A stretch of DNA of 61,670 nt, counting the filler, from Sphacelaria rigidula (lineage: Eukaryota): the NCBI GenBank assembly GCA_964200075.2. It is 6 parts of 6 records of this genome, joined end to end, with 100 filler letters (N's around TTAATTAATTAA, not from the genome) between each part and the next. Parts side by side here need not be neighbours in the genome. Positions count along the whole stretch, not along the records: positions 10,297 to 20,492 come from CAXNAA020006954.1; 5 more parts are not named here. One strand, 5' to 3'. The translations under genes and the position numbers were made by a program. Every line of letters starts with the position of its first letter. Positions within the stretch are counted from its first letter, which is position 1. The notes under the pieces were generated by a model. That model saw nothing but the letters and a program-made list of their open reading frames with translations, was not told where the DNA came from and did no database searches. Below are positions 1,706 through 51,377 of this stretch, piece by piece.

Positions 1706-4569
1706 ATGGTGGATCTGCACAAGCTAGCGCTCGAGGGCGATACGGAGGGAGTCCGCAAGTTCGTGACGAAATCATCCTCGAAGGTGGACAAGAAGAACCG
1801 CGACGGACAGACGGCGCTGCACTGCTGCGCCAAGGGGTGAGCCTGCGTTTTTACCATGTGACTGATTAGGGACAAAATCACATCATCCACGGCGTGAGCA
1901 TTGGGGGTGTTGTTCGGTGCTTTATTGACATCAACTTCGTCGTGGAACTCACACTCCGTGTGGAAGTGCGGCTGCTGTACCGTACCATACGATACTGTTG
2001 TGCTTGACCATCATAGGTCTACTAGTGCCATAGTGGTCGCTCGCGGTCGGTAACAGGTTTTCTAAGCCGATAACATGACGACGCTGTTTTGACCTGTTCC
2101 AACTCCTGCCATGTAAAGCTTGTACCCACAGGGGTCAGAAAACTGCAATAATATTGAGCGTTCGTCGGTCGGACACATGCGTCTATTAAGACATGGTATA
2201 ACATGACCCACGCCCCCTTCCTCCTGCCGCCTTACAATTTCGTGTTGTACTTCCTGGTTCCCCAGCGGTTATGCCGGTGTTGCTCGAGAGCTCCTGGCGG
2301 CTGGGGCATTTACGGATGTTGAGGATAAACTGAGCCGAACGCCTTTGTATGTGGCAGTCGACAACAATAAAATAGGAGTGGCTACGGTGCTCTGCGAGGC
2401 AGGCGCTTCCACCAGTCGACCAGGTCCGCACGGGCGTACACCCCTACATCTCGCCGCTAAAGCTGGACTCGTCGAATGCGCTAAATTGCTTTTGGTGCAT
2501 GGTGCTCCTATCGACGACAGCCCCGATAAGTGAGGGAGAGCTTCTGGCGGGCTGTTCGTTGCTGATCAACAACGCGCCAAATGAACGTCTACCCTTATTT
2601 ATATGCCTCCCGTGTAGCCAGTCTCGATCTGCTTCACCTCCAGGATCGTCTTTGAAATTAAACGACCATTACGTCTCCTATTATTTGTTTTGAATAGGGA
2701 ACTTATTCGTGGCCCCTCCTCTCAGTATCCCTCTTACTCGAGGCAGCGCATGAATCGGTGGTATCGCCGTAACCCCTTTTTCACGTCGGTGTATTGTTAT
2801 AAGGAAAAGCGGGCGGCTGTGTACAACTGCTCGCCATGCGAAACATACCCAGCCTTGTGGGCAGTGCGCGAGCCTGGGTCAGGAAACGCAGGTGGCCTGG
2901 CAACTCCCACACCTCGGACAATATATGGTCAATAGTTGCAATAGACAAGAGACGTACTGCATAAAGTGTGGGCCTATTGCGACCATTGTCGGCCGGCAAT
3001 AGTTGCAATAGGCCTATACTTTATGCAGTACACTTCTCGTCTATTGCATCCATTGGCCATATATTGTCCAGGGTGTGCAACTTTCCAAGCACGCCCTGGA
3101 GCTGGCCTGAATTAACATTTTGCTTGATTGACAATATTTCAGTCAACACAGATGCCTTCACCCAAGATTCGCTTGACCTTGACGGTGAACAGTGAAGCAC
3201 AACCACGATCTACCCATTTTGAAGCGCTGCTGAATATATTTTCGCCGTGTGGTATCCGTCAACGTGCGTATGGATCGCATTGTCAGAAATTCTCAGTTTC
3301 CCAAAGCGCTCCGCCCCACCGATCAAAGGCAACATACACGCGTTTAAGGACGGTACCGCATGTACATTCACGTATCCACGTTAATTGGGAAATTCAGGTA
3401 CGGCAATTCCCCAGAGGACTCCTGTGCAATATCAGAAATACGGATTTCCATTACCACAGCGCGCCGAGAGCGAGCGGCGGCCGCCGCCGGTGGCGAAGAC
3501 TGTATCTACAGTCCAAAGTCAGCTTCGGCACCCCAGGCGTTTCACAGAGAGTATAACGACGGCAGGGTGGATTTGGACGGCGGCTTTAACTCTGAATCCC
3601 GTCAAGAGGAGAAACATGGAAATGATGGCATGGCGGCTTCCAACTCACCCTTCAACCCCGCAGTAGTAGCCCCGCCATCATGTGAGTGAACAAAAGTGAT
3701 CACGACCCAAGTTAGTGGAAGTATTGGGGGTCTATGCCATGGCTGGATTTCTTGGTGATACCAGGCGATGTTAATGTACTTCACTTTTTTCTCTCATGTT
3801 AGTTCCCTCAACATCCTCATGTCAGGAGTCACAATGCTGCGCGTGGGTTTGTAAATGTCTGCTTTCGCTGGAGGACTGAACTGTCAACAACCATCGTCTC
3901 CTCACGCTGGCCTACCTCTATGCCCATGCCTTTCTATGGTTCGCACCGAAGGGACAAAGTCCGTGGCGCACGAAAACTGGAGGCGATGTCGGCATGATTC
4001 CATCGCCTAACTTCTCATAGTGTGCACAACACATGCTCAGCGAATCAAAAGGGTGTGTTGAGAATCAATGAGGCAATGGACAGATGACAGTACCAACAAC
4101 ACGGGAAAATAAAGAGCTCGCTGATGGACGAAGATTACCATTTACCGCGGGTACCTGGTATTTCTCTGACAGTTAAGGTAGCAACCCATCACAACCAAAC
4201 CATGCGTGACGTATACGCCACTTACTTCCTCCCAACCCCGCTCTACTGCGCGTCCGCCCTTCACTGCAATTACGCAAACCCGAAGCAGACACCGAAGCGG
4301 TTAGCCTCTCGCAGTACTCTGGCCCAGGCGACCACAGCCGGGATGGTACCGCTTTGTCACCCATGTCCAAAGCACGCGAGGCCGCCAAGCTTGGGGGCGA
4401 CCGTTGTTCGGCATGTTGCACTGTCGAGCGATCACGGCAGCTGACGCCCTGCTATCATGTTGTCTGTAGCGCCTGCGCCCGACGCTGCAGGAATGAGGGG
4501 GAGGATCGCTGCCCCACCTGTGGCAAGGAGGTGTTCGATGACAACCCTTGGATTCCGCCGTCCGTGTGA
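1706..4569 (+). CDS. Ankyrin-repeat protein with C-terminal C3HC4 RING finger (putative E3 ubiquitin ligase), 4 exons, about 319 aa
   Basis: join(1706-1836,2266-2529,3398-3681,4289-4569) = 960 nt, in frame, with GT..AG at all junctions. Ankyrin motifs: GQTALHCCAKGG, SRTPLYVAV, GRTPLHLAAKAG, DKYGNSPED. RING: CSAC...PCYHVVCSAC...CPTC, then stop. Confidence 0.88.
2908..3077. repeat. 170-bp loop-less imperfect palindrome (foldback/MITE-like) in intron 2 of the ankyrin gene
   Basis: Arms 2908-2992 and 2993-3077 are reverse complements with about 14 mismatches in 85 bp, nearly all transitions, centred on GTCGG|CCGGC. Confidence 0.85.
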
Positions 4570-6470
4570 TCATTTGTGGGTGTTCTGTTGCGTGAGGCCC
4601 GGGCAGCACACGGAACTGGGGTGAAGGGGGAGGAGGTGCTTGATGGGTATTGTTGGGTTTGCGAGGCGCGCACAGCACAAGGACAGGATGGGAAGACGGC
4701 TGCGAGGTGGCGGGGACGGCGCGTCCTCAGTTTTGCATACCCTAGCTCGCTGACCATTGATCGCGGGCCCGTAAAAGCGTGTGTGGGGTAGGGTGGATTT
4801 TGGAGAAAACAAAACTCGTAAGCTCGTGGACACTCTTTTCTCTCTGTCAAAATCTTGGGAGTATATGTGAATTGATACAGAACGAAAAGGTCCCGGACGT
4901 CGTGCGATTGAGCGACCTGATTGATTGTGAAGGTGTTGTTGAACTGTACTGTCTATCCCCGTAAATATGCTGCAAACTACCGTTCGTTGACCAGGCTGAA
5001 ACTCGCCGGGTGTTTATGATGAATGGGATCGGTTTCGATATTACCGGGTTGTGCCAAGCGTAGGCTTTGTGCTATAAGATGGGAGATGGTCCATTTGTTA
5101 CAGTACACTTTTGTGCTCAGCAAGAGCAGTCTCCGTAAGGCAATGCCCTCGTATACCCTAGAAGACTGTGACTTCGATGAGGGAAAATATCAGTTGCTAT
5201 GGTGATGAATGAGATGACGGTGAGGTCGCACACGATGTACCGTATCATAGAACCAGGTGAAGAATATCATGAACCCAGGTGAAGAATGCCCGCAGGTTGG
5301 AGCTCGGAAATGGTACAAGTTATAACTGGCCATTATCATTCTAGTGATCATAATGGCAATGGTTGTATGAAATCTGGATGATGGTTTCGAACCATTATTC
5401 ATCGTTACCGGCTTTACAAGCAGTTACCGGCTACGTATGCAACGTACAGCCCGTGAAAATTGGCCCAAATCTCACGTATTTATCAGCTCTAGTGAAACCA
5501 AATCGCATAGAAACGTGCCTCAGGCACGGCGTCTCCAGGGGAGGGGGGGGGGCTTTTTGGCTCGCGGCTGCGCCGCTCGATGACCAAACCATTATGTTCC
5601 ATTTAAGTGGTTCGTGAGTGCTCTACGCGTAACCATTCAACTGGTCGATGGTTCGACAAACCATTTCCGAGCTCTATCGCAGGTCGAGTCTCACACTTTG
5701 TATCTTACGCGAGAATATACCTCCAACCCTCTCGCTAGACTGGGCGATAGCTTCACATTCGATTTGGGTATGAACAAGACGACAGTCCCATGCGATACGA
5801 GAGTATTTTATAAATAATATTTACTTTTCACCAGGCATGGTGTGGCCGTTAATCTTCGACGACATTTTTTTCACGTCACACAACATATTGGAGGATGGTC
5901 TAATCTCACGCGAGGCATGGCTCAAGGACACCATTTGATCCCTCGACGCACTGCCCTTGGGCCGCACTGCACGCATACGATCTTCGTTATTCCTGCTTTG
6001 AGAGGTCAGAGGCATTCTGGAAGAGTACAGCGTGAGATATATCGGAAGTCCCTCCTCGATACTGGAGAGAGTCGGTTGCGCGCGTGGTGCAATCGGTGGG
6101 TGTCAATTTTCAGGTACTGTCAGGAAAATATATAGACGTCGCGCGCAAAATTCTGAAGAGGGGACTGCGTTCTACCGCAGCAATCTTGGGAGCATCTATA
6201 CCCCCGGTCGGTCGATTCCACTGCGCTGAAGAGGAAGTCGAAGGCCATAAATTGCAGCAAGGCAACGATTATCGCGGCAAGTCATATTCTCCGGGCCGTG
6301 TACCGTCTCGTCTACAAACAGCCCGTCTCAGCAGCTTTGAGTTTCAATTTTTTAAACTTGAGACGGCACGTGTCTTTTTATCTTGGTTCTAGTGTTTCTA
6401 CTACTAATATCAGTACTTTATAGTACTGTACAGGAACGGACCGGGGGGTGGTGGGGTTAGCGCTCAGCTC

Positions 6471-10196: not shown

Positions 10197-10296
10197 NNNN
10201 NNNNNNNNNNNNNNNNNNNNNNNNNNNNNNNNNNNNNNNNTTAATTAATTAANNNNNNNNNNNNNNNNNNNNNNNNNNNNNNNNNNNNNNNNNNNN
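10197..10296. other. Artificial contig spacer N44-TTAATTAATTAA-N44
   Basis: 100-bp spacer; the 12-mer places stops in all six frames. Confidence 0.98.
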
Positions 10297-12240
10297 CGTC
10301 CCGGCTTTGTAGGGATGCGAGGTCAATGGTCTGATGACTATGGCAAGCATGATCATGAGTACACCCCCGTGGGGTCGGCGTCGGTTGGCGACGACGTTGC
10401 AAAACACGCCACCCACTGCGTACGCTAGGCAACCAAGTTACCATTCGTTCCTTGCGCTCGCGTCTTTTTTTCACGGTAGCCATGATGGTGGTCGAGCTAG
10501 ATCATGTTGTGCGGGGTGGTAGAACCTCAATTCCGCGCAAAGGGGATGATCATACTACCTAGTGCTGATACGGAGAGACACTCATGAGGCGGTGTGGAAC
10601 CCGTGGCTGTATCTGGAAGTGGCGAGAGCAGACAACGAAACGACTTATTCAATCAGGACGCTTCGGACCGAACAGCCTCAGCAGGTTACAGCTCACCCTT
10701 CATGCGACTCGCCGAGCACACCACGGCGCTTCGCGCGTGGTGATTGATTGCAAGCCTGGTCTTCGAAAACCCGGCATGCTCCGTCCCGGCTTTGTGGGAA
10801 TGCGAGGTCAACGTTGTTATGGCTATGGCATGCATGATCATGAGTACCCCCCCCCCCCGTTCCCCCCCCGTTCGTCTTGCCATCCATGAGACATTGTGTA
10901 CCCTGTGGTTGTCGCTGGAAGTGACGATACCAGACAAAGAGGCAAATTATTGGAGGCTGTCATCCATTTGCAAGATGATCGTTACGCTTCGGGCCGAGAA
11001 ATCTTAGCAAGATGCAGGTCATCCCTCATGTGACTCGCCGAACACATCACGGCGCTTTGCCCTTGGTGATTGATCACGAGCCTGGTCCGACGAAAACCCG
11101 GCGCGCTCCGTCCCGGCTTTGCAGGGATCTGAGGTCATGATTCAATGACTGGCATGCCAGATCATGACTGCACCCCTCATCCTGACAATGAGTGTGCGGA
11201 AACTTGAAACTGTCGGCTTGAGAGGAGGCTGCGTTGTGAACCAACCGATTGGCCTGACCATGGGCATAGCAGCCACACTATCGTCCTGCCAGGGGGTACA
11301 AGATACCCACCATACAGTACGGATACTCTCGTGTGTTCTTTCCCTTTTTTTCCCGACATCGGAGAAGAACATGCGGGTGTCGGCCTCAGGAGGCTCTCGA
11401 ATTTTCTAATGGCCTCCTGCACTTTGCTCACCACCCTCGTTTGCATCGGTTTTTACTGTTTTGATGGTGTTTAACCCTCGACCCCCACCGGAGAAAGGGG
11501 ATGGTCGTGCTACGCGGTGTTTGAATGGTGAGACACCCATGAGGCAGCGTAACCCGTGACTGTTTCTGAAAGTGGTGATGCCAGAAAATGAAGAAGCTCA
11601 TTGCGGGCTGTCATCCATCGGTAAGATAATCAGTACGCTTGGGGTCGAGCGATCCTAGCAGGATGCAACTCACCCTTCATGCGACTCGCCGAACACACCA
11701 CGGCGCTTCGTGCTTGGTGATTGATTGCGAGCCTGGTCCGGCTGAAACCCCGACGTGCTCCGTCCCGGCTCTGTAGGGATGCGAGGTCAACGGTCTTCTG
11801 AATACGGCATACACTATCATGAGTACACCTCCCCTCTACTCCGGCTGCCATCTTTTTGCAGGATAGTACGCTTGGGGCTGAACAATCTTGGCAGAATGCA
11901 GCTCAAGCTCAATGCGACTTACCGCACACATCGCGGTGCTTCGCGCTTCGTGATTGCGAGCTTGGTCCGGCGAAAGCCCGGCGTGCTCCGTCTCATCTTT
12001 GTAGAGACGCGAGGTTAATGGTCTAAATGACTACGGGATGCAGAATAACCATTATACACTCCCCCCCGCCATGCGCCGTCTTGCTCCGTCTCGAAACGAA
12101 TGCGTGGTCAACGGTCAAACGACTAAGGCAAGCAACAAATGAGTACGCCCCCCCCTCCCCCCCGCCCCGTCATGCAGCATCAATGGTCACATGACTACGG
12201 CATGCCAGATCATGAGTACACCCCCGCCCCCCCGCTCCCT
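10297..12240 (+). mobile_element. Head-to-tail cluster of about 7 copies of the poly-C-tailed repeat family
   Basis: Copies at about 10297-10369, 10371-10870 (full length), 10885-11178, 11482-11836, 11858-12070, 12083-12168 and 12180-12240. They share a 3' block (CTCCGTCCCGGCTTTGTAGGGATGCGAGGTCAA...ATGAGTAC or a variant) followed by a C-run and differ in 5' start. Confidence 0.85.
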
Positions 12241-12326
12241 TCTCCCCTCATCCATCCCTCCCCCTCCATCAAAAACGAAAGAGAGCTTCCTGACAAAAGA
12301 ACTTGTGATCTTGTCTGTGTGCGCAG

Positions 12327-14168
12327 GTGGTTGAATCCTGGTCGGAGCCGATAGACGCGCCCATGAACATGTTTATTGTGTCTATTCCTACCGTGCTGGA
12401 CCCGAATCTGGCTCCCGAGGGCAAACACCTGGTGCATATCTACACGGCCGGAAACGAACCGTACGCCCTTTGGGAAGGCTTGAAGCGCGGTTCTCCGGAG
12501 TATGAGGTATATAGTCAACATACATGAATACTAAACCTTTCATATTTTGAAAGCTGCCCGGTAAGCAGTATTTCTGAAAAGCTTGGTGCAGAGAGTATGA
12601 GGTGAACAGAAAAATGTTACGTACTCAACCCCAGAGCATTCATTAAAAATAAATCCATGTTTTCCTTGCGACGTATTTCGTTTGAAGCCATCCGGCAGTG
12701 GTGTGCCGTTTTTTTTTTTCCTGGGGATATTCCCTCCTTTTCTCCATTCGGCGGTTTTTTTTTGCTTTACTTCCAGCATCGTGTTTTTTTCTTCTCCTGG
12801 TGATTTTCTTGTTTTTATTTCTTTTCTCCCCCTTTGCTTTCTCTGTTTTCCCGCTGCAGTGTGCTTTGATCTCTCTCCAACTCTCCTTGTAGACGACCTT
12901 TGCCTCCGCTCGAGGCTCCTTGAGCGAGCGTTTCTCTTCACTCGACGTGCGCACGTCGATGTCGTGACCACGGATGGCGTATCATTCAATGTGTCATACC
13001 TCATTGATTTACTCTATCCTGCGTCGCATACCCACCAACTCGCGCTGCAGTCCATTCATCGCATGGGCGTCGTTATTGAGCAGGAAAGCGGCAACAATCT
13101 CCCATTTTTCGGCTCAATATCTTACTCTTCCATGCACGAAACATGCCTTTCCCCTCACTTCCCCACATACATTGTTTCATTTATTTTCCTTGTATATGAG
13201 TCATTTATCGCTCTTGTTTGTTGCTGAGTTTCCAATACGTGAGTTTGAATCTTATTGGTTGTACGTGAAGGCGGACGGACCCCACCCTTCAGCAGTCAAG
13301 CAGCAGTCGAGAAATATATGTAATATATAAACATATATTTATTTATTTATATTGCGATATGCTCCACTTTTTTTCTTTTCGTTTCTGATTTTTCCCAGTC
13401 GATCCACGTGCAATCACTTTGCGCCCAAGCTTGTCAGATAAGGCTCAGTTTTCGGGGAGATGTGCACAGGTCCTTGCCAATTCGTACCTTCACCACATAT
13501 TAAGTCTGTACAACATCTGGAGGAAAGATGGGTTCTTGGTTGATGCGTTGAGATCACGGTGTCGTACCGAGGAACGGGAGGGGTTGCAAGCGTGAAGGGA
13601 ACAAAAAGAACATCAACAGACACGCACATATGACAAAAAATTGTTCAGAACACGTAAATTACTCACCACAGTTCTTTCATTGAAATCATGAGGAGACAAC
13701 GCGTTATCGTGTAAGGGTTGACCAATCGAACCCACAAAATGTTTCTCAACACTGTATAAGTATGATGGGTGACAAATCCAAGGGTCGGACGAATGAATGA
13801 TTCGTCCGGAAACTACTTGATCCTAGTGTATTCGATTCGTACAATACAAATCCTGGGGCTTTGTTTTCAGCGTTGTAACACAGGTACGCGCAGCCCAGGC
13901 AAACGGCGCCAAAATTGCGTGGGGACTACCTTTTTGGCCAGTGGGCAACGTTTTTCTCCCTTTTGAGCAATCAGGCCTAAGAAATCGTGGGTTTGGTGAT
14001 CTGAACCGGCGATGATTCGTTCGAGCCATGAAAATATCACAAGTGATAGGCAGCTCTACACAGCCTAATTCGGAGCGCAATAGCATGATGCATGGTTTGA
14101 GTTGAGTTGCAAAAACGGCCTCCCATGGTGAACCGCGTCATCCCGCTTCTTGGTGAAAGACACACACA

Positions 14169-14215
<47 letters not shown>

Positions 14216-17200
14216 CTGACGTTGAGCAGTCCTACTCACCTCGACATGAGAATGTCGCACGTAGAAGGAGAGTGCATCTCGCTACGATGCAATCAATTTC
14301 CGTTCTCAGCCGAGACGCAGCAAATTGTGCCACAGGTGTACTTCGGCTGCTGGATGGCGACGAGGAATAAGGGCAGTGCCGTTAGCGGGTAAATATAACC
14401 AATCCAAGAAGGCTGGCTGGCTACCATCAACAACCAAGTTCCCCGTACTCGAGAAACCAAGGTCTCGGAAAAGTGCCGGTTCAAGCCATCGCCCTGAACC
14501 ACACGTGAAAGTTCAAAATTCCTCTACTGGAGTAGGATATGACACTGCGAAGATACTCAGCTTCTTGCTTGACACATTTTTATGTCCCGGCGGCGACCGT
14601 GCGAATCAAAACGATTTTTTCATGTTTTTTCTCGTTACCCCCCCTTCGAGTGCCTGCGGCTGAGACACGTGCAAGTCGGTTATTCGTTTTTCAAGTCAAC
14701 ATGATGATGCCGATCCAACATATGGAACACTCTGGCTCTTGGGTCCTCTGCGTTTCGACTCTGACCGTGCACTTTATACTGTGCCAGCACACCACTTCGA
14801 TTGCCCTCACGTTTTTGGTATGTAATTGCTTCTGAAGTCAGCAGTGTCCCAAACTCCTGATGATCAAATATGTCACGGAGGATTAATCCAAAATGTGCAA
14901 CAGCAGACCCCTTGACTATAATAAAAATATTCGTCATTTGAGTATTGTACGAGCTATGTCAGTCTTGAAGCAACCTTGAGCTTGAAAAGGGACTTCCCTA
15001 CTTCGATTTTGAGAGTTTCAGATTAAAATTCGGTATGGAATATGGGAGAAAAAAAATGAAACATTATTTTGCACGTCAAGTATTTTTTCACCACCTTAGA
15101 ACAAAGAATAGGACCATTTTTTCAGACATGGGTCCTAAACTCAATACAAGAAACCCCGTTGTGCAGAGTACGTTCTGTTTAGTCGTTTCTTGCGATGCCC
15201 AATACCAAATTTCAATGCACAACCCTCATAGCTTAGCTAGTAAACCCACTTTTGGTTGGTGCATTAAGTACAACATGTTGAATATTGCATGAGTTCTCAA
15301 AAGCACTATACATCTCGAAATATGACAAACTACGTGGAGTTGTGGCTACCGACCGTCTCTCCTTGCCCCAAGGAATGGTCGTCTCTAAAATAAGTTGTCA
15401 TCCCCTGATTTTCATCATGACGGGGTTTTGTTTCGACTTTAGCCTTGAGATATCTCCGCACGTCACGAGATTCACTCGACATCACGTGAAAGCAACGAAG
15501 AAGTATCCGAACGGGGCTGTTCAGTACATTGGCATCTGGCTCTTGATTCGACGAGTAACAAGGTGTGCGGATCACGGCCCAATTTGTCTGCGTCAGTGAG
15601 GTATGGCTGTGACAGCTCAAGGTCCGTGTTTAGGCGGGCCCAGCTGTCCGCGTTCAGGCGGGCTCAGCTCGTAGGGTATGATTTCCTCACTCTAGTCTTG
15701 GTGGCGGTCAAAGGACGATGGTTGGTCGTGATTCATTTTAGAGCGCTTTCGGTCGTTACTCCTCGCGCGTGCGTGACCGGTCGAAGACTAGTAGCTGTGC
15801 GATGGTCGTCCAAATAGTGTGTGTGCAGACGCGTTACCCCATGGCAGTAGAGCATTGGAAGTCGCGAATGTTTCCCGAGGGACGCACTACGACAGGATAT
15901 CGGAGTCCTCACACGAGCAAATTCCACACGTGTATGCCTCTTGCTGGGATATAAGCGGCCGTGACCTGGCGGTGTAAGTGGTAGACCACTAGCCACTCAG
16001 GCCCGGAAGGTCGAGGTTGCAGGTTGGAATCATGGTAAGCACGCTCTTTTTTTCAGGCGCTGCTATCTGTTTTCTATCGTTTAAAAGCATGAAGACGCGA
16101 GGAAGCAAAAGCGAATTCGAGGAGAGGTGACCAGGTGTCGGAACGTTGATCCGATCCTCAGCAGAAGATGGTTTGACTTGGTGATCCTTCTTTGAATACC
16201 ACGGAGTCCTATCATAGTCTCGAGGAATGGCAGGGTTGGAAGTATGACGAAAAAAAAAAGAAGGAACGAGACCGAAAGTCGACCGGAGGTTCACTTGAGC
16301 GTATGTACTGTACGCATTGCGACAACACTTTTTTCTTTTGTCCTCAATTTTCATGAAGATATTCGCCGTGGTATGCTAGAGTCCCTGTAACACACGATGT
16401 TTTTCCAAGAAAGCTCTGAAAGATCTGAAAGGGTAGGTACGATGCTCTCTGGCATTTTCCGGCGCGACGCGCCGAAAATGAAGAACATGTGGTGTCGGTC
16501 TTGAACTTTTCTTCCGACGTGCTGTGCCTCTACCTTTTTCGCCCCTTGTTTTTCCTTCGTATTCAGGCATTGAAAAAAGAGCGTGCGGAGGGCATGTGGA
16601 AGGCACTCGAGAAAATAATCCCGGACATACGTCAGAGAACTGAGGTGGAGCTTGTGGCGAGTCCGCTAACACACGAGTTTTGGAACCGAAGATTTCGAGG
16701 TGTGGACACGACTACACTACTCCAGGACATGCCATAATGCGTTACGTGCATAGTTCGTGTGGCGCGGTCAAATCCAACGCTTGAGGAAAGGTTTCGGTTG
16801 TTCGAGCGCTTCCGAGTGTATAATCGTACGCCCCCAGTGTTGTGTATGATTACAGTCCGGGATGAATGCAACGGCAAGAACAGCGATGAAGAACCCTTTC
16901 ACAGTAACAACAGCAACAACGGAACAAACCAAAAATGCGAGGAACTCCACCTCGAAAGATGGAAGAAGAAAAAAAAGGTGAAAGAGAAGGAGAAAAGTAT
17001 AGAACGAACAAACAAAAACACAGCCATGAGAACGAATTCAAGGAATGTGCGGACCAGGGCGGATAGAGGCTCCAAAGTTGACTTTCGACTGTGCATGCTG
17101 CCTCCAAAGAGGCGAATGCATGCCGGAGACTCCACGTTTACCTCACGTTCACTGCGAATATTCTACTTCGTATCCCTTCCGACGAAGCTTGAAAACAGCC

Positions 17201-18894
17201 GGACGGTACAATCAGAGAATGGCCGTTCCAACACGATTTGATACAATTCAACACGAAACACACCAATACATTCGGAAGTATTTAATCAGCGATTTGACAT
17301 GGAGTGCATTGTTGAAAAACTCTCTGCTAGGCGAGTTGGTCTTGTATACGGTAGTATCACCATTTTGATGTCATGGCCTTTTCTATATTTTTTTTGCTGC
17401 TGAGAATATCTTTGTCCCCCCTCACCAGTTGAAGCGTGTGGTGGTAAGCGTTGTTCATCACGCTGGATTTGAAGGTTCTGCATGCCGAGGCGCTCACGCC
17501 CAGTTGACTTGGATAATGTAGACAAGTTTTGATCTGTGAAAACAACGACAACAGTATAAATGCTTTGGGAGGGTGCTATATTACAGTAATTTTTTTTTTG
17601 CAAACGTTGCCCGCAGGATTGTGAAACTCTCTTGAAGTTCGGATGAATTGTCTCGGCACCTCCAGTACGCAGTGTTGCTAGGGTGAGCCCGGGCAAGCGA
17701 AGTTTGTCTCGGTCGATCCGGGTATGTGGTTGATAGCTCCACAATGGGGAGTGTATGTGTGTGCGTGTATGTGTCATGAAAAAAAAAAAACGTTCTTGTT
17801 TTGGCCCACCACAAAGGGGGAGGGCGCATAGTAATTGCACAATCAGAGCAGGTACCTCTTGTCCGCTACATACCCAACCATGCGGCGATGCCGTTCTTAT
17901 ACCATATTGTGTACCTTTTCCTGTGACGTATTTGCACTAGCCGCGGATCAGTCGTCATTGAAAACCCGACAAGAATCACCCGTCATTCGGGTAAGGGTGT
18001 GAATGCAGAAAACAGTTACATTCGTTGATTTCTGAAACCCGAAAACGCCTTTGGTACTGCGAGGATGTTTGGGGTCGTTTCATATAAATTGTAACCCAAG
18101 GTCATGTCACACCACATGAACAACAAATACGATCTTCCAAGCAACCCCCCCCCCCCCCCAAAAAAAACTTTGTTCACGCTCAAATTAAAATGCAACTTGA
18201 TCACACTGCACACATGAAGTACCCACCACACACACACACACATACATAGCGTGCAACTCATCCACCCGAACAAATCTGATGCACGTACTGTCCGACGGCC
18301 TCCATAGCGAAAGCTGCAAACGTTAACTGACGACATGCCATCCAGGATCGTACGGACCCGGGTGGAGGGCTGGAGAGGCCGAATTCCCCGGCTGCGTAAC
18401 ACCGCTCAAGGGTCTTCTGCACTGCGGAGACTCCACGCTGCCGGGTCTTGGTCTCCCGGCCGTCGCGGCTAGCGGTATGAACGCGGCGAGGTACGACTCC
18501 GGCGCGCGCCTTGCGAGGCATATCAATGTTTTCTACGATTACCAACGCAAAAATACGGTATGCTCAGATAATGGACAAAATGTCGAAGTCTTGGTGGCAG
18601 AAAATAGTAACACCTACTTGATATTTGTTCAAGCCACGTGATCACCTCGTCCGAGCCGCCCACCGGCCTTGCCCGTGTCGTGCTCATCGCTTATTTGTGT
18701 ATGCGGCGTGTTTATATCTGCGCTTTGTGCGTTCGTATATCTCTGTGTCCTGCGCTTGCTGCTGTGCCCCGCCATGCTTGGGCCTGGTGTGCTTGGCTTG
18801 CTGCAGTACGTTAACGCCGGTATGGAAGCAGCTGCGACTACTTTGGGAGATGCAAAGCAAAGGACTCATAGACAGCAAGTTCAACGACTTTTGA
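12327..18894 (+). CDS. Carotenoid isomerase-like (CRTISO/CrtH/phytoene-desaturase superfamily) FAD oxidoreductase, last 4 exons, 5'-partial
   Basis: join(<12327-12506,16567-16699,18346-18490,18807-18894), in frame, GT..AG. Family motifs: VSIPTVLDPNLAPEGKHLVHIY, SPLTH..RRFRGSYGP, TPLKGLLHCGDSTLPGLGLPAVAASG. Confidence 0.9.
14161..14212. repeat. (CA)n microsatellite in a CRTISO-like intron
   Basis: About 26 CA units read directly, one interruption. Confidence 0.95.
15958..16045 (+). mobile_element. Degenerate tRNA-like (SINE) head
   Basis: A-box-like GGTGTAAGTGG and B-box-like GGTTGGAATC at tRNA-like spacing; no intact cloverleaf. Confidence 0.35.
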
Positions 18895-19176: not shown

Positions 19177-20278
19177 CGTTGGTAGATAAAGACTCACATA
19201 ATAGGCGGCGGGCAGCGGGAGTGAGCCTCTTGGGGATATTGTTGTGTGTATCCCTGCACAAGGGATCAGAGGCTGACTCCACCGAGGTTAGTCGGATCCA
19301 GGGTCGGAAGGTTGGGTAGCAGAAGTACAGCAGTACTTCAGAGCAGAAGACAATGGTTCGATGTTGTAAACAAGGCGCTTGCGGCCAACACAAACAAATA
19401 AAAAAGGCAGACACCGGCTGCTGATTGCCCCGGTAGGGTTGTGCTCCTAGAGGTGATAAGGAACCCATACAAACCAGGAAGGTAAACAAGGAGTGAGCTC
19501 GAACACCGAGCACGGCCCATCAACATCTGCCTTACAGACGTTGGCATATTCGTCCGCAGACGTTACATGCCAACCGACACATATTATACCGACTGCACTT
19601 TATAGCCACACTACAACAATGAGCACTGCATGAACAATGCTACTATACTTTGACTCCATAGAGGAATGTGTAGACAATTCCGTAACACTCCCCTTCGATG
19701 AAAGTTGCCTGTGAAGTGCGATACCCATTGTTAAATGAACACCAACATATTTCTTACTAGTTATGCGCATAAACAGAGTTGCCAAATGTTCATCCTCCAA
19801 AGTTCTTGATCCGGTCGACAAGGAAACGAAAACGATGCTTGCTCAAAAACTTGGTTCCGATGTCGGCGAGTTGATGCTCCGTGGGAATATAATGAATGGT
19901 TATTTTCCCCTCCTTGGCCATCTCTCTGATGTAGAAGAAACGTAGAGCGATGTACTCTGTGCGAGAACTGTACGCCTCATTGCCGATGACACGAAGAGTG
20001 GCCGTATTATCGATTTGTAACGACACTTGTCCGAACTGCTGTCCGAAACTCAACTCGGTCATCATGTTTAAGCAAAACACAGCTGCCTTCATTGTCAGAG
20101 CTGCAGCCACCAGTTTTGCCTCCATGGTTGACATCGTTGTCAGGCTCTGGATTCCTGACTTGAACCTGACGGGCGCCTTACACATCATCATGAGATAAGC
20201 TGAGGTCGATTTACCGTTGTCAGGGTTGTTACCCCAGTTTGCATCCGAAAACGCAGTGAGCTTAAACCCTCCATACAT
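19177..20278 (-). mobile_element. 3' remnant of a Ty1/Copia LTR retrotransposon: RNase H, polypurine tract and 3' LTR
   Basis: ORF 19790-20278 has Copia RNase H motifs (AFSDANWGNNPDNGKSTS, STMEA, IDN, IALRFFYIRE, QLADIGTK). PPT GAAGGGGAG is followed by TGTTACG at 19687; the putative LTR runs to about 19177 (ends CCAACG). Confidence 0.85.
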
Positions 20279-20334
20279 ACGTCGGACGAGTCATCACTCG
20301 TCGAGACGAGTGCACTCGTGGATGTTTTTCGAAA

Positions 20335-20492: not shown

Positions 20493-20592
20493 NNNNNNNN
20501 NNNNNNNNNNNNNNNNNNNNNNNNNNNNNNNNNNNNTTAATTAATTAANNNNNNNNNNNNNNNNNNNNNNNNNNNNNNNNNNNNNNNNNNNN
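20493..20592. other. Artificial contig spacer
   Basis: N44-TTAATTAATTAA-N44. Confidence 0.98.
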
Positions 20593-20944: not shown

Positions 20945-21378
20945 ATCCAGGTGGGCTACCCTCCTCGCGGTCTAAAAAAAGGGGTAAGGGGCCACCAAAC
21001 ACAATGCCTATTTTGCACGAAAACGCCCCCAACTAATAATGCAAACAACAACAAGGTCTTGAACCTTGAACATTTAATTTCATTTTGCCCTCTCCATACT
21101 CCATAATACTTCGTCTACTCTGTTTTTCTGTTTTACGTTTTCTACCTCATATTTTTTCTTCAATCCAGGTGGGCTACCCTCCTCGCGGTCTAAAAAAAGG
21201 GGTAAGGGGCCACCAAAAACAATGCCTATTTTGCACGAAAACGCCCCCAACTAATAATGCAAACAACAGGGTCTTGAACCTTGAACATTTTATTTTCATT
21301 TTGCCCTCTCCATACTCCATAATACTTCGTCTACTCTGTTTTTCTGTTTTACGTTTTCTACCTCATATTTTTTCTTCA
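20945..21378. repeat. Near-perfect direct tandem duplication, about 218-bp unit, 2 copies
   Basis: ATCCAGGTGGGCTACCCTCC...CATATTTTTTCTTCA starts at 20945 and again at 21163. Confidence 0.92.
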
Positions 21379-30787: not shown

Positions 30788-30887
30788 NNNNNNNNNNNNN
30801 NNNNNNNNNNNNNNNNNNNNNNNNNNNNNNNTTAATTAATTAANNNNNNNNNNNNNNNNNNNNNNNNNNNNNNNNNNNNNNNNNNNN
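30788..30887. other. Artificial contig spacer
   Basis: N44-TTAATTAATTAA-N44. Confidence 0.98.
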
Positions 30888-34650: not shown

Positions 34651-35133
34651 ATTTACTCACAAGATTATCCGCTTGTGCAAAGATCTATATTAGAATATTG
34701 CCGAGTTTAACACCAGTGCACATGTACTTGGATGAACTCGGGTACATGAAGGGGCAGATTGATGGTATATCAAAGATACCGGATATTGTATGAGGTACCG
34801 GGTATTGTATCATGACTTAATGTTCGGAATATAAGGGGATCCTAGGTGCATGCGTGAATACGAGCCTCAGTTCATGTTTGTTTTTTTGTTGCACACTGCA
34901 TAATGCATTTTGGGTGAGAGAGCAGCTCGGGTGGAGCTTGCACGGTTGATGTTGGGTGAGTGAAGGATATAAAAAGATTAATGCAAGAAGAGCTACTACA
35001 CATTCCCCTCTGTCCAGAGCACGTCCTCTGAGAGAGGCATTCCTTTTTTCACTACACTGGCGATTTGAACAGGTCGATTGCAACGAGGTAGCTGAGGGAA
35101 GAAAGCAAGTTTCAGATAGTCAAGCAGGTGGTG

Positions 35134-35385
35134 TCTAATACAGTTGAGCAGAACAGCAGCAGAATTCGCGCATTTAGCCAGTTTCAGAGAGTTACGCAGT
35201 TAGCGTATAATACAGCTGAGCGAAACAGCAGCAGAACTCGTGTGTTTAGCCAGTTTCAGAGAGTTACGCAGTTAGCGTCTAATACAGTTGAGCAGAACAG
35301 CAGCAGAATTGGTGCGTTTAGCCAGTTTCAGAGAGTCACGCAGTTAGCGTCTAATACAGTCGAGCAAAAGAGAAGCAGAAATTGC
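35134..35385 (+). repeat. 72-bp tandem repeat, about 3.5 copies, inside the putative LTR
   Basis: Unit TCTAATACAGTTGAGCAGAACAGCAGCAGAATT...GCAGTTAGCG starts at 35134, 35206, 35278 and 35350. Confidence 0.92.
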
Positions 35386-37610: not shown

Positions 37611-38269
37611 GCATCTTGATCAGTGTTTGGCAGATTCATGTGTGTCCCGATCGATGGAGACAACAAGGTAGCGATCACAATGATGGTACATCTAGACGAT
37701 GTTTTTGCCGTAGGGGATGAGGAAGGTGTGGCGGATTTGGTAAGCAACTGAACACAAATGTTCCAGTCCAAAATCTAGGAGAACTGCAGTGGCATTCGTG
37801 TATATATTACGAGAGAGATTTGGAGAGGGGGATCCTCATTGTTTCGCAACAGACTTTTGCATAGGAGTTGGCGGAGGAGTGCAATATATCATGGGGGAAT
37901 AAGATGCCTATGAGTACCAGTGTAAAGCTCGAGAATTCCAGTGAGGATGAGCAGAGCACGACGTTCCCACTCGGGAAATTGGTAGGGCCACTCATGTGGC
38001 CAGCAAACCAGACCAGACTGGACATTTGCAACGTAGTGAGAGCGGTAGCGAGATATTGCGCACCCCCGACTACTGCAGCGCATGCCCCCACTGATACTGT
38101 ATCTCCGGGTCCCTTTGTCGGTGCAACCTCGTCTCATGTGGCGTATTCCCCTACTGAGACGGTGCCTTCGCGTGCTTCTGCCGTCTCGAAGATGTCGGTC
38201 CCAATATGCAACCTTTTGAAGTTGCTTTCGAATTTGTCACATTTGATGCACTGCCCCTCCGCCCGACTT

Positions 38270-38785
38270 GGGGGTGGGGGGTCGGGTGTACTCATGATCT
38301 TGCATGCCATAGTCATCAGACCATCGACCTCGCATCCCTACAAAGCCGAGACGGAGCACGCCGGGTTTTTAGTCAATCACCAAGCGCGAAGCGCCGTGAT
38401 GCGCTCGGCGAGTCGCATGAAGAGTGAGCTGCATGCTGCTGAGATTTGTTCGGCCCGAAGCGTACCATTATAAGTATCTTGCATATGGATTGGTGCCTAC
38501 AATGAGTTGCTTCATTATCTGGTATCGCCACTTCTAGAGACAGCCATAGGTTACACGCTGCCTCATGGATGTATCGCCATCTAAACACTGCGTAGTACGA
38601 TCATCTCCTTTCCGCGGAGTCGGGTTCTCCATCCCACACAATATGATCTAGCTCGACGACCATCATGGTTACCGCAAAAAAAACACAATCGCGCAAAGAA
38701 GGGTAAGCTGGTTGCCTAGCTTACGCAGTGAGTGGCGTGTTAACAGCGTCGTTGCCAAGCGACGCCGACCCTCGAGGGGGGGCGG
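38270..38785 (-). mobile_element. Full-length (about 500 bp) copy of the poly-C-tailed repeat family
   Basis: GGGTGTACTCATGATC...CGACGCCGACCCTCGA with G-rich flanks on both sides; reverse complement of 10371-10860. Confidence 0.85.
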
Positions 38786-41082
38786 CTTGGTGGGGGGAGG
38801 GGGAAGGTTGAGGGATTACCTCATGAACCACCCGTTTAAAAGTAGTGCAATTGCTCACGTATCCGACCGTTGGCTCCCATCTGGATATTGCCCTGAGCGT
38901 AATCGATCCAGCATCAGCTATTGACTAACATAGCATCAATATGACTCCCCCCACCAGCCGGCGTATGCACCGACCTTGTGGTCTACCCAATCCGCGTGAC
39001 CAACGCCCTGCCGACCAAGAACCCTAAACGTGTGTACAGGGTGGTATATACCCGCACACACTACAACCCGACCCCACTTCACCATCACGGCATCTGCTGG
39101 CAACGAAACTGGGAACAAAATGATTTTGTCGGCCCACGGCTTGCTCCGTTCCACTACTCGTACCCATACAAACGACGGGAACGCGCCCGCGACCAAAATA
39201 ATCGGACTGAAATCCCCAACGATCGCGTGCTCGTGATCTTCTCCGTGTCCGTTCACACGATGATAAACGGACGAACCATCGCAGGGAACGCCGGCTCAAT
39301 CACATAGCACCTGCCTGCTGAACCCTACCGCCGAACACTCTCTTTAGCGCCGCTTCCTCCGTCAAAAGTATCGAGCGGGCGGTCAGAAAACATGTTCTGA
39401 AAAATAACATCAAACTGCCAACACTGACGCGGAAAACCCAGCCCTCGGTAAAACTTCTCATCCGAGAGGAAAACTCCCATTCCCAGGGGAAAAAAACTCC
39501 GCAGTGACGCCATTCGCCGCAACTAGACACAATCCTGTAAAACATCAAAGGAGGGGTGGAGGGGAAGAACTTAGAGCACAACTATTCTAGATGCTTTCAC
39601 TCGCTGATAGTCGCGCCACACCCGTCTCCCGGGTTTCACAAACCTCGAACTTGAACCCCTTAGACCGCGAGGGTAGTCCGTCTGGATCATGCATATTTTT
39701 TTCATGTGAAATTGATGACGATTCAACAGATAACCTACTCTCGCCGTGTCAGGGTTAACCCTTTGACAGACAGGGTAGGCCATGCGGGTTACGCAGTCAT
39801 TTTCAAGCGAAAGTGATGTCGATTCAACAGATGACCTACCCTGACGGCCAAGGGGACCATTGTTGTCACTTCGAAGGTGGGTGCACTTGCTCTTGTATGT
39901 TGCTGCTTCTACCATGCTGTATCCGTTCCACCTGACTCATCACACAGACAATCGTTCAGGCCAATGTGTGCTGAATTGGCTTTTTAGAATTTTCAACCAC
40001 CGTACGTGAACACCTGGGAACAATCTACCCGCTCCTGCACAAAAAATCGATTCTCCCCGAACACAGAATCGGATCTTTTCGGCAACGTGACGGTCACACA
40101 CTTCGAAACCGTCACGTTGAAAACTCGACACATGAGTCGAGCCAGTCTTGAGTCGCGGCAAATCGAGCCATGGTTTCAAAAATATTCGGGAGAATACGGC
40201 ACCACTCACTCGGGAGACTACAGCAGATTCCAATGGTTTCCGTCTCTTGGACCGTAGGCAGCGACCCCGCCGAAGGTGAACTGAGATGGACTATGCTACA
40301 TTTGGGGTACAGAACAGCTCTTTTCTCGCTACACAAAACTTTTTGTTCATCATCATGTGGATGCTGGGCCTCTATACACAAAATATTTCTGGAGAACCTC
40401 TGACCGGTTTCGACCGTGCAGTCAATAGCTCAGAGTCAGTGTGGGTGCGGTATGTCTCCGCTGGATACAACGGCAAGAAATAGACAGTGTGCCATCGCTC
40501 TCCACTGAACACAATTTACCGCATGCTGCTGATGCCTCTGCTTAGTGTTCAACAACAACACTACAGACAGTGTGAAGCAATGCCGGCAACATACAACAAG
40601 CGGCACAGGCCTCGAGCAGAGTACAAAATACTTTATTCGTACCCATCATGTCATCTATGGTTGAACTGCCATGAACTGAATGATATATGCCAGTGGATAG
40701 CGAAGTAGTCCACCTGTAGGAGAACTACGTGCTTATTTTGACGGCCGTGATTGGTCAAAATGGTCATTCCGCGCCTTCCGGGCCTCGTTCATGACTTAGA
40801 ATCTTCCGCGGGAATCTCCCAAAGACACATGATTGACTTGGTGAGCCTTTTGGCTGCTCTGCGGACGGACCTCCCCCCCCCCCTCCCTCAAAAACCACCC
40901 CCGGCGGCCACTGGAAACCCCCGAATGTCACCAGATTGTCAGCCTGTGAAAATGTTCCGAGACGACGCTCGCTGTCCAAGGGTCAAGGGTCGTTTTCAAC
41001 GGGATTTTTTTTTTTCTCAGACTTTTCGACTTTTTCTGAATTTTTTCTGACTTTTCCTTTTTCTTTTTCTTCTAAAAAATAC

Positions 41083-41182
41083 NNNNNNNNNNNNNNNNNN
41101 NNNNNNNNNNNNNNNNNNNNNNNNNNTTAATTAATTAANNNNNNNNNNNNNNNNNNNNNNNNNNNNNNNNNNNNNNNNNNNN
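41083..41182. other. Artificial contig spacer
   Basis: N44-TTAATTAATTAA-N44. Confidence 0.98.
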
Positions 41183-41282
41183 TTCCCCTGGGCGGGGGGG
41201 GCGCGCTCATTCTCTCTTTTGGGGCCCCCTGCAAGCCCCCGGCCCCACTACGGGCCCCCCCCCCCCCCCCCCCCCCTCCGTG

Positions 41283-41461
41283 TTGAAAGGGATGCATGTT
41301 CAATGGCCAAATGCGTAAGGTAAGGAACAAATGAGTAAGCCCCCCTCCCCCCAAAAGTCGAGTCTGGTCCGGCGGAACCCCGGCGAGCTCCGTCTCGGCT
41401 TTGTAGGGATGCACGGTCAATGATCTAATGACAACGGCATGCAAGATCATGAGTACACCCT
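41283..41461 (+). mobile_element. Two short 5'-truncated copies of the poly-C-tailed family
   Basis: They end in ATGAGTAAGCCCCC (about 41345) and ATGAGTACACCC (41460) and follow a long C-run at about 41254-41276. Confidence 0.75.
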
Positions 41462-41520
41462 GAAATTATCTACTGTTGGCGACGATGTGGTGCGTTCCCG
41501 GGATAATGGCGATAGCGCAG

Positions 41521-44023: not shown

Positions 44024-44919
44024 ATGCCCCCACTGTACTGTCTGTGTGACGTTATCTTTCCCTTGTTCAAGTGTTGCGTTCTGTTCGGTGTGCGAGCATC
44101 TCTGTGTGGTTTGTGCTTGACTTGTGTGCGTGTATCCTGTGTGCGAGTTTTGTATGTATGCGTTCTGACGTGAATTTGTATGAAGCATACTTGGAGTCCT
44201 GCCCTTTTTACGGCACAGTACAGCAAGAGTGCAGTAGCCCAACAGATACAATGCCACATTACAGCAAGTGTACAAACAAACAAACAATGAAGGTCTATAG
44301 TGCCCTCTTAGCAAGCAATGAGCGTGGCTTGCGCGCTGTGATTCTGGGGCTGTCCTGGGAGGTTGCGACGGGCTATCTTGCGCGCGCGCGCCATCATAAT
44401 TTGGTATACTTTGACGCTGCAGGGTTTATATAAAATACGGGCTAGCTTATTGCTTCATCCTTGCGCCTGTGGAATAGGTTTCTGAACTTGTCTGATGTTT
44501 TCCTCATGGCGTGTGTCACAAAAAAAGTTCGAGTACGGCAGTGGTTACCCGAAAGCAGGCCCACGGTAATGACATTTCTCGTTTTCTTGATGGGCTCGCG
44601 GGAAAAAGCTGGTGTAACCCCCCGTCTTGCCCCCTAGGAGCAGATCTATTTGTTGTGTATTCGTCACTCATAACCCAGGCATCCAAGATTATTCGACACC
44701 AAAGCATATACCATAAAATGTACTTGTATATATGCTGAAAATTCGGTGTTTCGGGTACTTGGTTCTGAGGTCCATGCCGTGTACAGCGCCTTTTCTAAAC
44801 ACGCTAAAAGCGTACTCCCGGTGCTGAAGGTCCTTGTTTCCTTGAGTGCTTCATGGCTGACGCTCTTGCGCTGTGGAGTAATCTCCATTGGGGAAATCAT
44901 TTCCATCTTGGGTATCATA

Positions 44920-45190
44920 TTTCATCTGACGTATACATCTCGGATATCCATCCGGCACGTCCGTCTGGAACGTACATGTGGGACACTCATCCGAGACATC
45001 CACTTGGCACATGTATCTGGTGCAACGATCTGGGACATGCATCTAGGAAATCCATCAGGGACACCAATCTTCATCCATTTGGGCCATCCATCTGGGGTAG
45101 TCCATGTGAATGATAACTCCTACATGGATCTGAGATATCAGACGGATATCCCAGATGCGTATCCCAGGTAGACATCCCATACGGATACTG
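44920..45190. repeat. Degenerate minisatellite of about 12-bp units (CATCTGGGACAT-like)
   Basis: Recurrent CATC(C/T)GG/GGACA motifs at roughly 12-bp spacing. Confidence 0.6.
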
Positions 45191-48130: not shown

Positions 48131-48450
48131 CCATTTCCACAGCACCGCCGATAGTGTACATGTCAACCGGAACGCATTATCGGTTGTCCCCCGATCAGAT
48201 TACTCCGTCTCGAAAGGGATGCGAGGTCAAAGGTCACACGACAAAGGCAAGCAAAAAATGCGTACCCCCCCCCGCCCCAGCCCCGCACCCCCCCATTTCC
48301 ATAGCACCGGTGATACCGTACATACCAACCGATACGCATTATCGGTTGTCACCCGATCAGATTACTCCGTCTCGAAAGGGATACATGATCAACGGTCAAA
48401 CGACTGAGGCAAGAAAAAAATGTGTACCCCCTCCCCGGCCCTCGGCCCCC
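48131..48450 (+). repeat. Two tandem units of about 162 bp ending in a diverged version of the poly-C family 3' end (subfamily B)
   Basis: Units start at 48131 and 48293. Both contain ACGCATTATCGGTTGTC.CCCGATCAGATTACTCCGTCTCGAAAGGGAT and end ATG(C/T)GTACCCCC; similar to 12083-12168. Confidence 0.85.
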
Positions 48451-51299: not shown

Positions 51300-51377
51300 G
51301 AGGGGTGTACTCATGACCATGCATGCCATAGTCATCAGACCATTGACCTCGCATCCCTACAATACCGGGACGGAAGA
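51300..51377 (-). mobile_element. 3' end of a poly-C family copy, cut by the gap
   Basis: GGGGTGTACTCATGACCATGCATGCCATAGTCATCAGACCATTGACCTCGCATCCCTAC. Confidence 0.85.

Follow-up and report, generated by a model that had tools for sequence, protein, structure and literature searches.

The closest described counterparts of the repeat family analysed here are the Penelope-like elements of the Chlamys clade. As characterized in the passages of Craig et al. 2021 devoted to them (PMC8557442), these elements have a strong insertion bias towards (C)n or (CA)n, their target-site duplications are not discernible, and their ORF encodes a GIY-YIG endonuclease at the N-terminus and a reverse transcriptase at the C-terminus, with a CxC linker. 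The repeat sections of PMC12477816 report three Chlamys families in the brown alga Ectocarpus, with 4782 copies of which 27 are intact, as well as abundant LINE-dependent non-autonomous elements of ~600 bp. Splice-site proximity is not mentioned in the Chlamys passages of either source, and a literature search found no account of it for brown-algal elements. In mammalian introns, zones poor in transposable elements lie next to exons, according to Zhang, Romanish and Mager 2011 (PMC3088655). The introns of brown algae are unusually long and element-rich, and the present family bears on how such elements are tolerated.

The stretch analysed here (the window) comprises 61,670 nucleotides, filler included, from a second brown alga, Sphacelaria rigidula. 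It contains a non-coding, 5′-truncating and very high-copy repeat family in two forms, A (~500 nt) and B (~160 nt), which have in common a 3′ module of ~70 nt ending in ...ATGAGTACACCC and followed by a C-rich run. Copies with this module number 14 in the window (12 on the plus and two on the minus strand), and a core motif of 20 nt recurs 10 times with at most three mismatches, against 0.01 expected by chance. Two A copies are full length: 10372-10871 (+), which starts with GGGTCGGCG... at its 5′ side and has runs of C12 and C8 at the opposite end, and 38273-38785 (−). Beside the latter lies a possible copia remnant, an Atlas lead (0.89) for which Pfam returned nothing. Six further A copies, all on the plus strand, are 5′ truncated, each at a point of its own (10881-11181, 11493-11834, 11863-12070, 12172-12270, 41359-41460 and 43494-43817), the one at 11493 lying after CCCTCGACCCCCAC. 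Two others, represented by their 3′ modules, are cut by the borders of the pieces that make up the window, the copy at 10297-10369 (+) on its 5′ side, where the 10.2-kb piece begins, and that at 51302-51377 (−) at a piece end. A fragment at 57000-57187 (−), with C runs before it, holds the 5′ part of A only, without the 3′ module, and its 5′ start is the one common to three A copies. The B form is present as two truncated copies with C-rich ends (12081-12168 and 41276-41354, both +) and as two copies head to tail with a period of 162 nt (48123-48441, +). The C runs directly after ...ACACCC are variable, the tails of several copies having just 3-5 C.

With regard to abundance, the summed depth of DNA contigs on the 3′ module reaches ~4.6 million, against ~60-95 in single-copy bins (contigs on 41183-51377), so that the family exceeds single-copy sequence by a factor in the tens of thousands, depth not being the same as copy number. 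In public data, a 25-nt element motif had no matches in metagenome and genome contigs, and a 27-nt degenerate motif had none in genome and viral contigs; a 20-nt degenerate core hit 34 metagenomic loci, which were rejected as chance matches confined to the motif and mostly located in GC-rich contigs. A search for element-derived ORFs gave only seven, all short and located in ENA contigs; neither they nor their flanks contain a Pfam domain, and nothing in them bears on adjacency to exons.

The truncation series, constant at one end, is compatible with reverse transcription that begins at the 3′ end, and an RNA intermediate is probable. None of 189 ORFs of at least 90 aa matched a reverse transcriptase or endonuclease family, ankyrin and RING being the only matches, and the minus-strand ORFs beside the 5′ fragment ending at 57187 look non-coding, with no obvious reverse transcriptase motif by eye. 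We therefore infer a link to a partner whose enzyme would act in trans. The reading that we prefer, with a confidence slightly better than even, is a short non-coding retroelement family mobilized by such an enzyme, for which a Chlamys-type Penelope-like element is favoured and a LINE is the alternative, and integrating at C runs in a manner that builds arrays. An enzyme encoded elsewhere would copy the element RNA into DNA from the conserved 3′ end, and copying would often stop early, producing a ladder of 5′ truncations. Integration would take place at C runs, and each insertion, bordered by C, would become a new target. Later copies would then settle beside earlier ones on the same strand, resulting in mixed-age head-to-tail arrays within introns. 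On the negative side for this reading, the fold of the 3′ module is not significant (z = −0.34) and its covariation is almost nil.

A different source of the C runs is conceivable, namely a LINE-dependent SINE-like retroposon whose templated poly-C tail primes on G runs of the nicked strand, much like the poly-A of L1 and Alu, the C tracts at the target following from microhomology. The 5′ truncation, the 3′ module conserved in two families and the variable C runs would all be in keeping with such an element, and the consensus of the loose contig ends at the 3′ module (305 contigs, X1) ends in a homopolymer G run, the complement of the tail, with an agreement of 0.49. Moreover, the top family of Ectocarpus is described in the main-text passages of PMC12477816 as a ~600-bp non-autonomous element with a 3′ end in common with RTE-X LINEs, and RTE-related SINEs have, according to PMC6007223, target signatures linked to a pyrimidine stretch and to their own 3′ repeats. 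However, no LINE is seen in the window, no target-site duplication could be demonstrated, the short tails of several copies fit poorly, and no poly-C-tailed LINE or SINE was found described in the literature search. Neither is there a tRNA, 5S or 7SL head according to ARAGORN, which returned no genes, and Rfam, which gave no matches in the window at gathering score; for 38200-38850 and 48100-48470, relaxing the threshold to E = 5 also left it without a match. A run of 7-8 T, which would terminate polymerase III, sits ~100 nt into the element. Altogether, we consider a LINE-dependent SINE-like origin possible but rather unlikely.

The copies of the family tend to occur in head-to-tail arrays on a single strand, at 10297-11181 (three copies), 11493-12270 (four), 41276-41460 (two) and 48123-48441 (two). 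An inverted adjacent copy, a frequent trait of Penelope-like elements, was seen at none of the eight loci in the window and in one of six outside contigs with visible flank, where it directly follows a C run. Arrays of this kind could also arise from single events, either through template jumps of the reverse transcriptase or through unequal crossing-over and tandem duplication. This origin would suit the B pair at 48123-48441, a plain 162-nt tandem with 85% identity between its units, one of which is missing from one RNA contig; in many contigs a B unit follows the end of an A copy without a gap (41454-41462 joined to 48203), and Penelope-like elements typically produce complex tandem insertions. 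However, array members differ both in their truncation points and in their identity to the youngest copies, the copy at 10297 having 94% identity to two other copies and its direct neighbour at 10372 only 72-77% to other copies. Because array neighbours differ in similarity, separate insertion events are favoured, and an origin of the arrays in single events is improbable.

As for the borders of the insertions, C-rich sequence precedes all four of the 5′ junctions without a visible earlier copy, with 17 C in 25 nt, 26 in 39, 27 in 45 and 11 in 25, the background chance of at least 16 C in 25 nt being 0.0013. A C22 tract (41255-41279, +) stands immediately 5′ of the B copy at 41276, and a C-rich stretch (43473-43488, +) just 5′ of the junction of the solitary copy at 43494. 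Later copies in arrays abut the C runs of their predecessors or lie inside them. Flank alignments that might represent target-site duplications are C-rich and were equalled by 101 of 500 and 36 of 500 composition-matched shuffles. The earlier note on this DNA had proposed that the element targets C-rich polypyrimidine tracts, and the C-rich borders at both 3′ ends and 5′ junctions speak for the C-rich part of that proposal; its extension to acceptors agrees less well with the five acceptors without insertions, where a long C tract is absent. C-run targeting would be the cause of these borders under our preferred reading of trans-mobilized insertion at C runs, although the C runs could be templated LINE-type tails instead of targets, and the C-rich sequence before the 5′ junctions might consist of decayed tails of older copies, now invisible.

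Three loci bring the family close to splice sites, and their positions agree to within a few bases with those of the earlier note. Measured from the end of the element body, the acceptor AG lies at 103 nt in case 1, 60 nt in case 2 and 46 nt in case 3, all on the plus strand. In case 1, the short A copy that closes the four-copy array (12172-12270) has its body end at 12223, followed by a C-rich run to ~12270 and by 56 nt of unique intron sequence (12271-12326) up to the AG at 12325-12326. The next exon (12327-12506) belongs to a prolycopene-isomerase-like gene with further exons at 16567-16698, 18346-18473 and 18807-18891. It has 90% identity over 60 aa with a prolycopene-isomerase-like protein of Scytosiphon promiscuus, and the tblastn homology begins right at the AG, so that the acceptor is confirmed by homology to brown-algal proteins of this type. 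These protein matches also rule against a dinoflagellate origin of the sequence. No upstream exon of the gene was found in 10297-12326.

Cases 2 and 3 map to a second gene. In case 2, the A copy at 41359-41460 ends in ...ACACCC without a further C run, and 60 nt of unique intron sequence (41461-41520; DNA contigs are single-copy from 41432 on) lead to the AG at 41519-41520 and to an exon (41521-41677) followed by the donor GTAAGT. In case 3, the solitary copy at 43494-43817 has its body end at 43803 and a short C-rich end to ~43817, and 32 nt of unique intron sequence (43818-43849) separate it from the AG at 43848-43849, after which comes the last exon (43850-44902), with its stop codon at 44021-44023. 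An RNA-run contig (X6, record 18; 2418 nt) covers 41521-41676 and 43849-44755, skipping the sequence between, and a contig of X7 (record 24) likewise begins at 43849. The first of these contigs is spliced, and therefore the acceptors of cases 2 and 3 are in use on the plus strand and X6, a run with no RNA label on record, holds processed transcripts. A further exon of 114 nt at 43056-43169 (+) is probable, since exactly 114 letters of the RNA contig have no other place and the interval is an open frame bordered by CAG and GTGAGA.

Every copy within the three introns is in sense orientation, and splicing is intact with insertions at 32-60 nt from the AG; they are probably harmless there. Under the preferred reading, the three cases would be the downstream ends of C-run loci at which this length of host sequence was left and the introns were still spliced. 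A C run that merges into pyrimidine-rich intron sequence is indeed observed in cases 1 and 3, with no more than CCC after the body in case 2. The suggestion that the tail regenerates the acceptor tract, on the other hand, does not hold, since the 32-60 nt of unique host sequence retain a pyrimidine-rich stretch of their own and case 2 has no C tail. Nor did the orthologous acceptor bear out a pre-existing tract: in the five contigs from relatives that read through it, no run of three or more prolines occurs in the visible 60-201 nt upstream, and there is therefore no long C run there. An empty-site joint was not present among the 15 joints listed of a longer list (656 more; contigs on 41183-51377).

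The abundance of so short an element in introns could also bring to mind introners, or DNA transposons of the Helitron or MITE type. An introner copy would make up a whole intron with splice sites created by the insertion; in the present case, the introns hold unique sequence and several copies, and the acceptor before VVESW is common to five contigs of relatives with unrelated upstream sequence. A DNA transposon is hardly compatible with the absence of terminal inverted repeats on the element and with a series whose single constant end fits reverse transcription. Both of these origins are thus very improbable.

A more demanding interpretation of the three cases is that the family homes throughout the genome to C-rich pyrimidine tracts that lie just upstream of the branch site and acceptor, inserting in the same direction as the host transcript, finding a safe harbour and inflating the 3′ ends of introns. 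Three of the five intronic loci in the window lie within 60 nt of an acceptor, which has P = 0.0014 under present intron lengths, or 0.00018 with random strand. All four loci in demonstrated introns, and a fifth one that is probably intronic, are in sense orientation, and the C-rich stretches on each side of the solitary copy at 43494 would, once joined, give a pyrimidine tract of ~50 nt before the AG. Since transposable elements are under-represented near mammalian exons according to PMC3088655, one would not ordinarily expect three cases of this kind. However, with a very small sample and thresholds set once the data were known, these P values are post hoc, and they rise to 0.038 (60-nt cut-off) or 0.16 (105-nt cut-off) when ancestral introns of 350 nt serve as the null; the long introns considered here contain other high-copy repeats, perhaps younger. 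The notion that the element is always in sense orientation stands for the three introns but fails for the B pair at 48123-48441, which is antisense to a minus-strand gene, within the 3′ part that RNA contigs cover, and five sense loci out of six with known context give P = 0.22.

Other loci are away from known acceptors, as is the case of that ending at 11181 (367 pre-insertion nt), that at 51302 (in sense orientation, ~780 nt upstream of the minus-strand acceptor 50522), the B pair in its 3′ transcribed region and the copy at 38273, next to the possible copia remnant. In addition, the insertion-free acceptors and the relatives lack long C tracts in the sequence visible, and genome-wide homing to splice-site tracts is accordingly a doubtful reading. 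In its most specific form, that is, a genome-wide preference for integration on the transcribed strand, some dozens of nucleotides ahead of a 3′ splice site and just short of the branch-site region, with the C run joining the pyrimidine-rich end of the intron, it is likewise no better than tentative. One window cannot establish a preference of the element for acceptors, and C-run targeting alone does not account for acceptor proximity, if this is real, in view of the five insertion-free acceptors.

In any case, the analysis adds a (C)n-bordered, array-forming retroelement family resembling Chlamys, at a very high copy level, in a second brown alga, together with three well-documented insertions next to splice sites that function. 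If C-tract homing beside acceptors in sense orientation were true, it would represent a rare insertion preference tied to splice signals and offer a concrete mechanism by which brown-algal introns are inflated, growing at their 3′ side. It would also define a safe harbour close to splice sites, in contrast to mammals, where the zones beside exons are poor in elements.

Among tract-primed non-LTR retroposons, L1 and Alu prime on T runs, and the present family differs from such elements in that its tract is of C, not T or A, and in that target-site duplications are not visible. The resemblance to RTE-related SINEs (PMC6007223) lies in a homopolymer or short-repeat 3′ end matched to the target and in a pyrimidine stretch that marks the site. 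The family is also similar to RTEX-N1_Ec32 as presented in the main text of PMC12477816, a non-autonomous element of ~500-600 nt, often 5′ truncated and with a 5′ origin of unknown source; each is the most abundant repeat class and common in introns, although the main-text passages of that paper make no mention of C runs. The mammalian work in PMC3088655 addresses the same question of intronic element position relative to splice sites and of orientation, and there elements are depleted near exons, whereas the three cases described here would be the opposite, if representative. With regard to Chlamys, the units seen here differ in being 160-500 nt long and non-coding, with no linked GIY-YIG or reverse transcriptase ORF and no inverted neighbour in the window, and their summed depth, which is not a copy number, is far above the 4782 copies of Ectocarpus. 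Canonical hammerheads are missing from both, for the most part in Chlamys and, here, as judged by the lack of an Rfam match, a feature that does not discriminate between families, and neither has discernible target-site duplications. Heavy 5′ truncation, head-to-tail partial tandems and (C)n at the insertion borders are likewise common to both, and Chlamys elements, too, occur in a brown alga, where they number in the thousands and few are intact. This profile matches that of the published Chlamys-clade Penelope-like elements, a LINE-dependent SINE-like element being the possible alternative.

The earlier note placed the 3′ ends of three copies of the element, a short non-coding repeat bordered by C runs, near splice acceptors, a placement that the analysis confirms. 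The three element bodies all terminate in ATGAGTA(C/T)ACCC, with final positions 12223, 41460 and 43803, and lie 103, 60 and 46 nt from the acceptor AGs at 12325-12326, 41519-41520 and 43848-43849 (cases 1, 2 and 3); where the C-rich run stops, 56, 60 and 32 nt remain. Cases 2 and 3 belong to a plus-strand gene, where a 2418-nt contig from an RNA run aligns to 41521-41676 and 43849-44755 and leaves 114 letters unplaced in between, which match an open 114-nt exon bordered by CAG and GTGAGA (43056-43169). In a second run, one contig begins at 43849. For the acceptor before 12327, tblastn alignments with four brown-algal proteins begin at the AG and are followed by three later exons, and no match to the preceding protein part was found upstream within 10297-12326. 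The exon at 12327-12506 shows 90% identity over 60 aa with the prolycopene-isomerase-like protein of Scytosiphon promiscuus and 85-88% identity with those of Pylaiella and Ectocarpus, which identifies the source as a brown alga. As the window (61,670 nt) is a composite of six 10,196-nt pieces connected by N44-TTAATTAATTAA-N44 spacers (10197-10296, 20493-20592, 30788-30887, 41083-41182 and 51378-51477), the two host genes come from separate places, and features of different pieces are not genomic neighbours. The DNA runs containing this sequence comprise ~0.6-0.9 Gb of contigs.

Self-comparison, alignment and a profile scan of the window revealed 14 copies of one 3′ module, 12 on the plus and 2 on the minus strand, together with a 5′ fragment of 190 nt (57000-57187). 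In the alignment, the longer form A (~500 nt) has a 5′ start, GGGTCGGCG, common to three copies; a further six have lost their 5′ part to varying extents, each with its own truncation point, and the copies bearing the 3′ module all end in the same way. The shorter form B (~160 nt) has its final ~70 nt in common with A. None of the 189 window ORFs of at least 90 aa matched a reverse transcriptase or endonuclease, the only domains found being ankyrin and RING; the scan gave no tRNA, no Rfam family was matched, and the fold of the 3′ module was not significant. The module reaches a summed DNA contig depth of ~4.6 million, compared with ~60-95 in single-copy bins; this sum is no copy number and is therefore read simply as a sign that copies are very numerous. 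At the 3′ end of one copy, the loose ends of 305 contigs (X1) give a consensus (agreement 0.49) closing with at least 20 G on the plus strand, complementary to the C tail of the element. A marginal match to the module profile (E = 0.012) at 4731-4766, on the minus strand, adjoins a RING-finger exon (4210-4566). The stretch 18215-18250, in which CATGAAGTACCCACC is followed by (CA)n ~100 nt before an acceptor at 18345, resembles by eye a remnant of the element 3′ end and is absent from the profile-scan report.

Element tails vary between CCC and runs exceeding 20 C, and the 5′ junctions with no visible earlier copy upstream are preceded by C-rich sequence (17/25 C at 43494, 26/39 at 38785, 27/45 at 57187 and 11/25 at 11493; the background chance of at least 16 C in 25 is 0.0013). 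Within arrays, each 5′ junction comes after the C run of the copy before it. Flank alignments gave C-rich matches only, equalled by composition-matched shuffles in 101/500 and 36/500 trials, so that no target-site duplication is demonstrable. Two other copies share 94% identity with the one at 10297, while the adjacent full-length copy shows 72-77% identity to others; neighbours within arrays differ in age, and the arrays thus give the impression of a single place hit repeatedly. Isolated C15-C16 and C11 tracts, with no recognisable A or B copy attached, occur at 18145-18161, 47517-47534 and 40873-40887; the first of these has sense orientation and precedes the acceptor at 18345 by 184 nt, and the C16 at 47517 runs antisense within a 3′ region that is transcribed. 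In many DNA contigs and a few RNA-run contigs, an A body end (41454-41462) is joined straight to the B unit at 48203, starting with CTCCGTC, so that A-B composites seem to be frequent in this genome. One RNA-run contig omits exactly one 162-nt B unit of a tandem pair (48190-48351), which may be due to assembly collapse or to length variation, not to an intron.

The sense orientation that had been claimed for all elements holds for every copy in the three introns, as well as for the copy at 51302. It breaks down at the B pair 48123-48441, antisense within 47112-50522, where RNA contigs run unbroken over a gene with a minus-strand acceptor. Counting each array as one locus, 5/6 loci of known context are in sense (P = 0.22), and in one outside contig an inverted copy directly follows a C run. 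The idea that the tail regenerates the pyrimidine tract is contradicted by the 32-60 nt of unique host sequence, with single-copy DNA contigs, that separate the C run from the AG, and by case 2, which has no C tail. The five insertion-free acceptors show mixed C/T or T/G-rich stretches with no long C run. The same acceptor, the one preceding VVESW, is read through in five contigs of relatives, whose upstream sequence is unrelated; the 60-201 nt visible there (one frame, unknown taxa) hold no run of at least three prolines, which weakly suggests that a long C run before this acceptor is unlikely in those relatives.

With arrays collapsed, eight loci result, 5/8 of them intronic, and introns are demonstrated for four of these five; the fifth, at 51302 on the minus strand, lies ~780 nt upstream of a minus-strand acceptor at 50522 defined by an RNA contig. 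Three of the five end no more than 60 nt from an acceptor. If the null takes the 9026 nt of pre-insertion intron sequence known in the window, with its 8 acceptors, a single locus has a chance of 0.053 and at least 3/5 has P = 0.0014. If ancestral introns of 350 nt are assumed instead, P is 0.038 for the 60-nt cut-off and 0.16 for one of 105 nt. All these cut-offs were chosen post hoc, for a pattern that the earlier note had itself picked from a whole window. Other very high-copy repeats sit in the long introns and may be younger than the 72-87%-identical element copies, which would make the shorter-intron null plausible. The proposed acceptor preference is coherent but unproven, and we regard a real bias of the element toward acceptors as doubtful.

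Further very high-copy repeats map to 42596-42655 and 46099-46158 and to bins 42543-42882 and 45603-47302, with summed DNA contig depths of up to 1.5 million, one of them within the 1378-nt intron of the plus-strand gene. The window also contains a 218-nt unit present twice with 97% identity (20945-21378) and a 72-nt tandem repeat with units ~87% identical (35104-35380). By eye, the ORFs at 37865-38200 (plus strand) and 19793-20290 (minus strand) are like Ty1/copia pol remnants; Pfam gave no significant match for either, and the Atlas lead from the former to a Ty1/copia cluster was only 0.89. Directly after a cut A copy, 51245-51296 on the minus strand shows CAG, ATG and a donor-like GTAAGT and may be a small exon lying upstream in the minus-strand gene, with no support among the RNA pieces listed.

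Among known retroelements, the most abundant family of Ectocarpus, in a TE survey, is a ~600-bp non-autonomous element whose 3′ end is shared with RTE-X LINEs (PMC12477816). A live alternative is, in this regard, that the element depends on a LINE and carries a templated C tail; targets are likewise tract-linked in RTE-related SINEs (PMC6007223), and no description of a poly-C-tailed LINE or SINE was found in the literature. The most fitting reading of the element is a (C)n-associated retroelement of known kind that forms arrays. Naiad and Chlamys Penelope-like elements are described by Craig et al. 2021 (PMC8557442) as heavily 5′-truncated, in partial tandems and mostly devoid of the hammerhead, and the same Ectocarpus survey counts 4782 copies, of which 27 are intact, in three Chlamys families (PMC12477816). 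The element family matches 4/6 of the listed features of the Chlamys profile, and the coding hallmark is not among these four.
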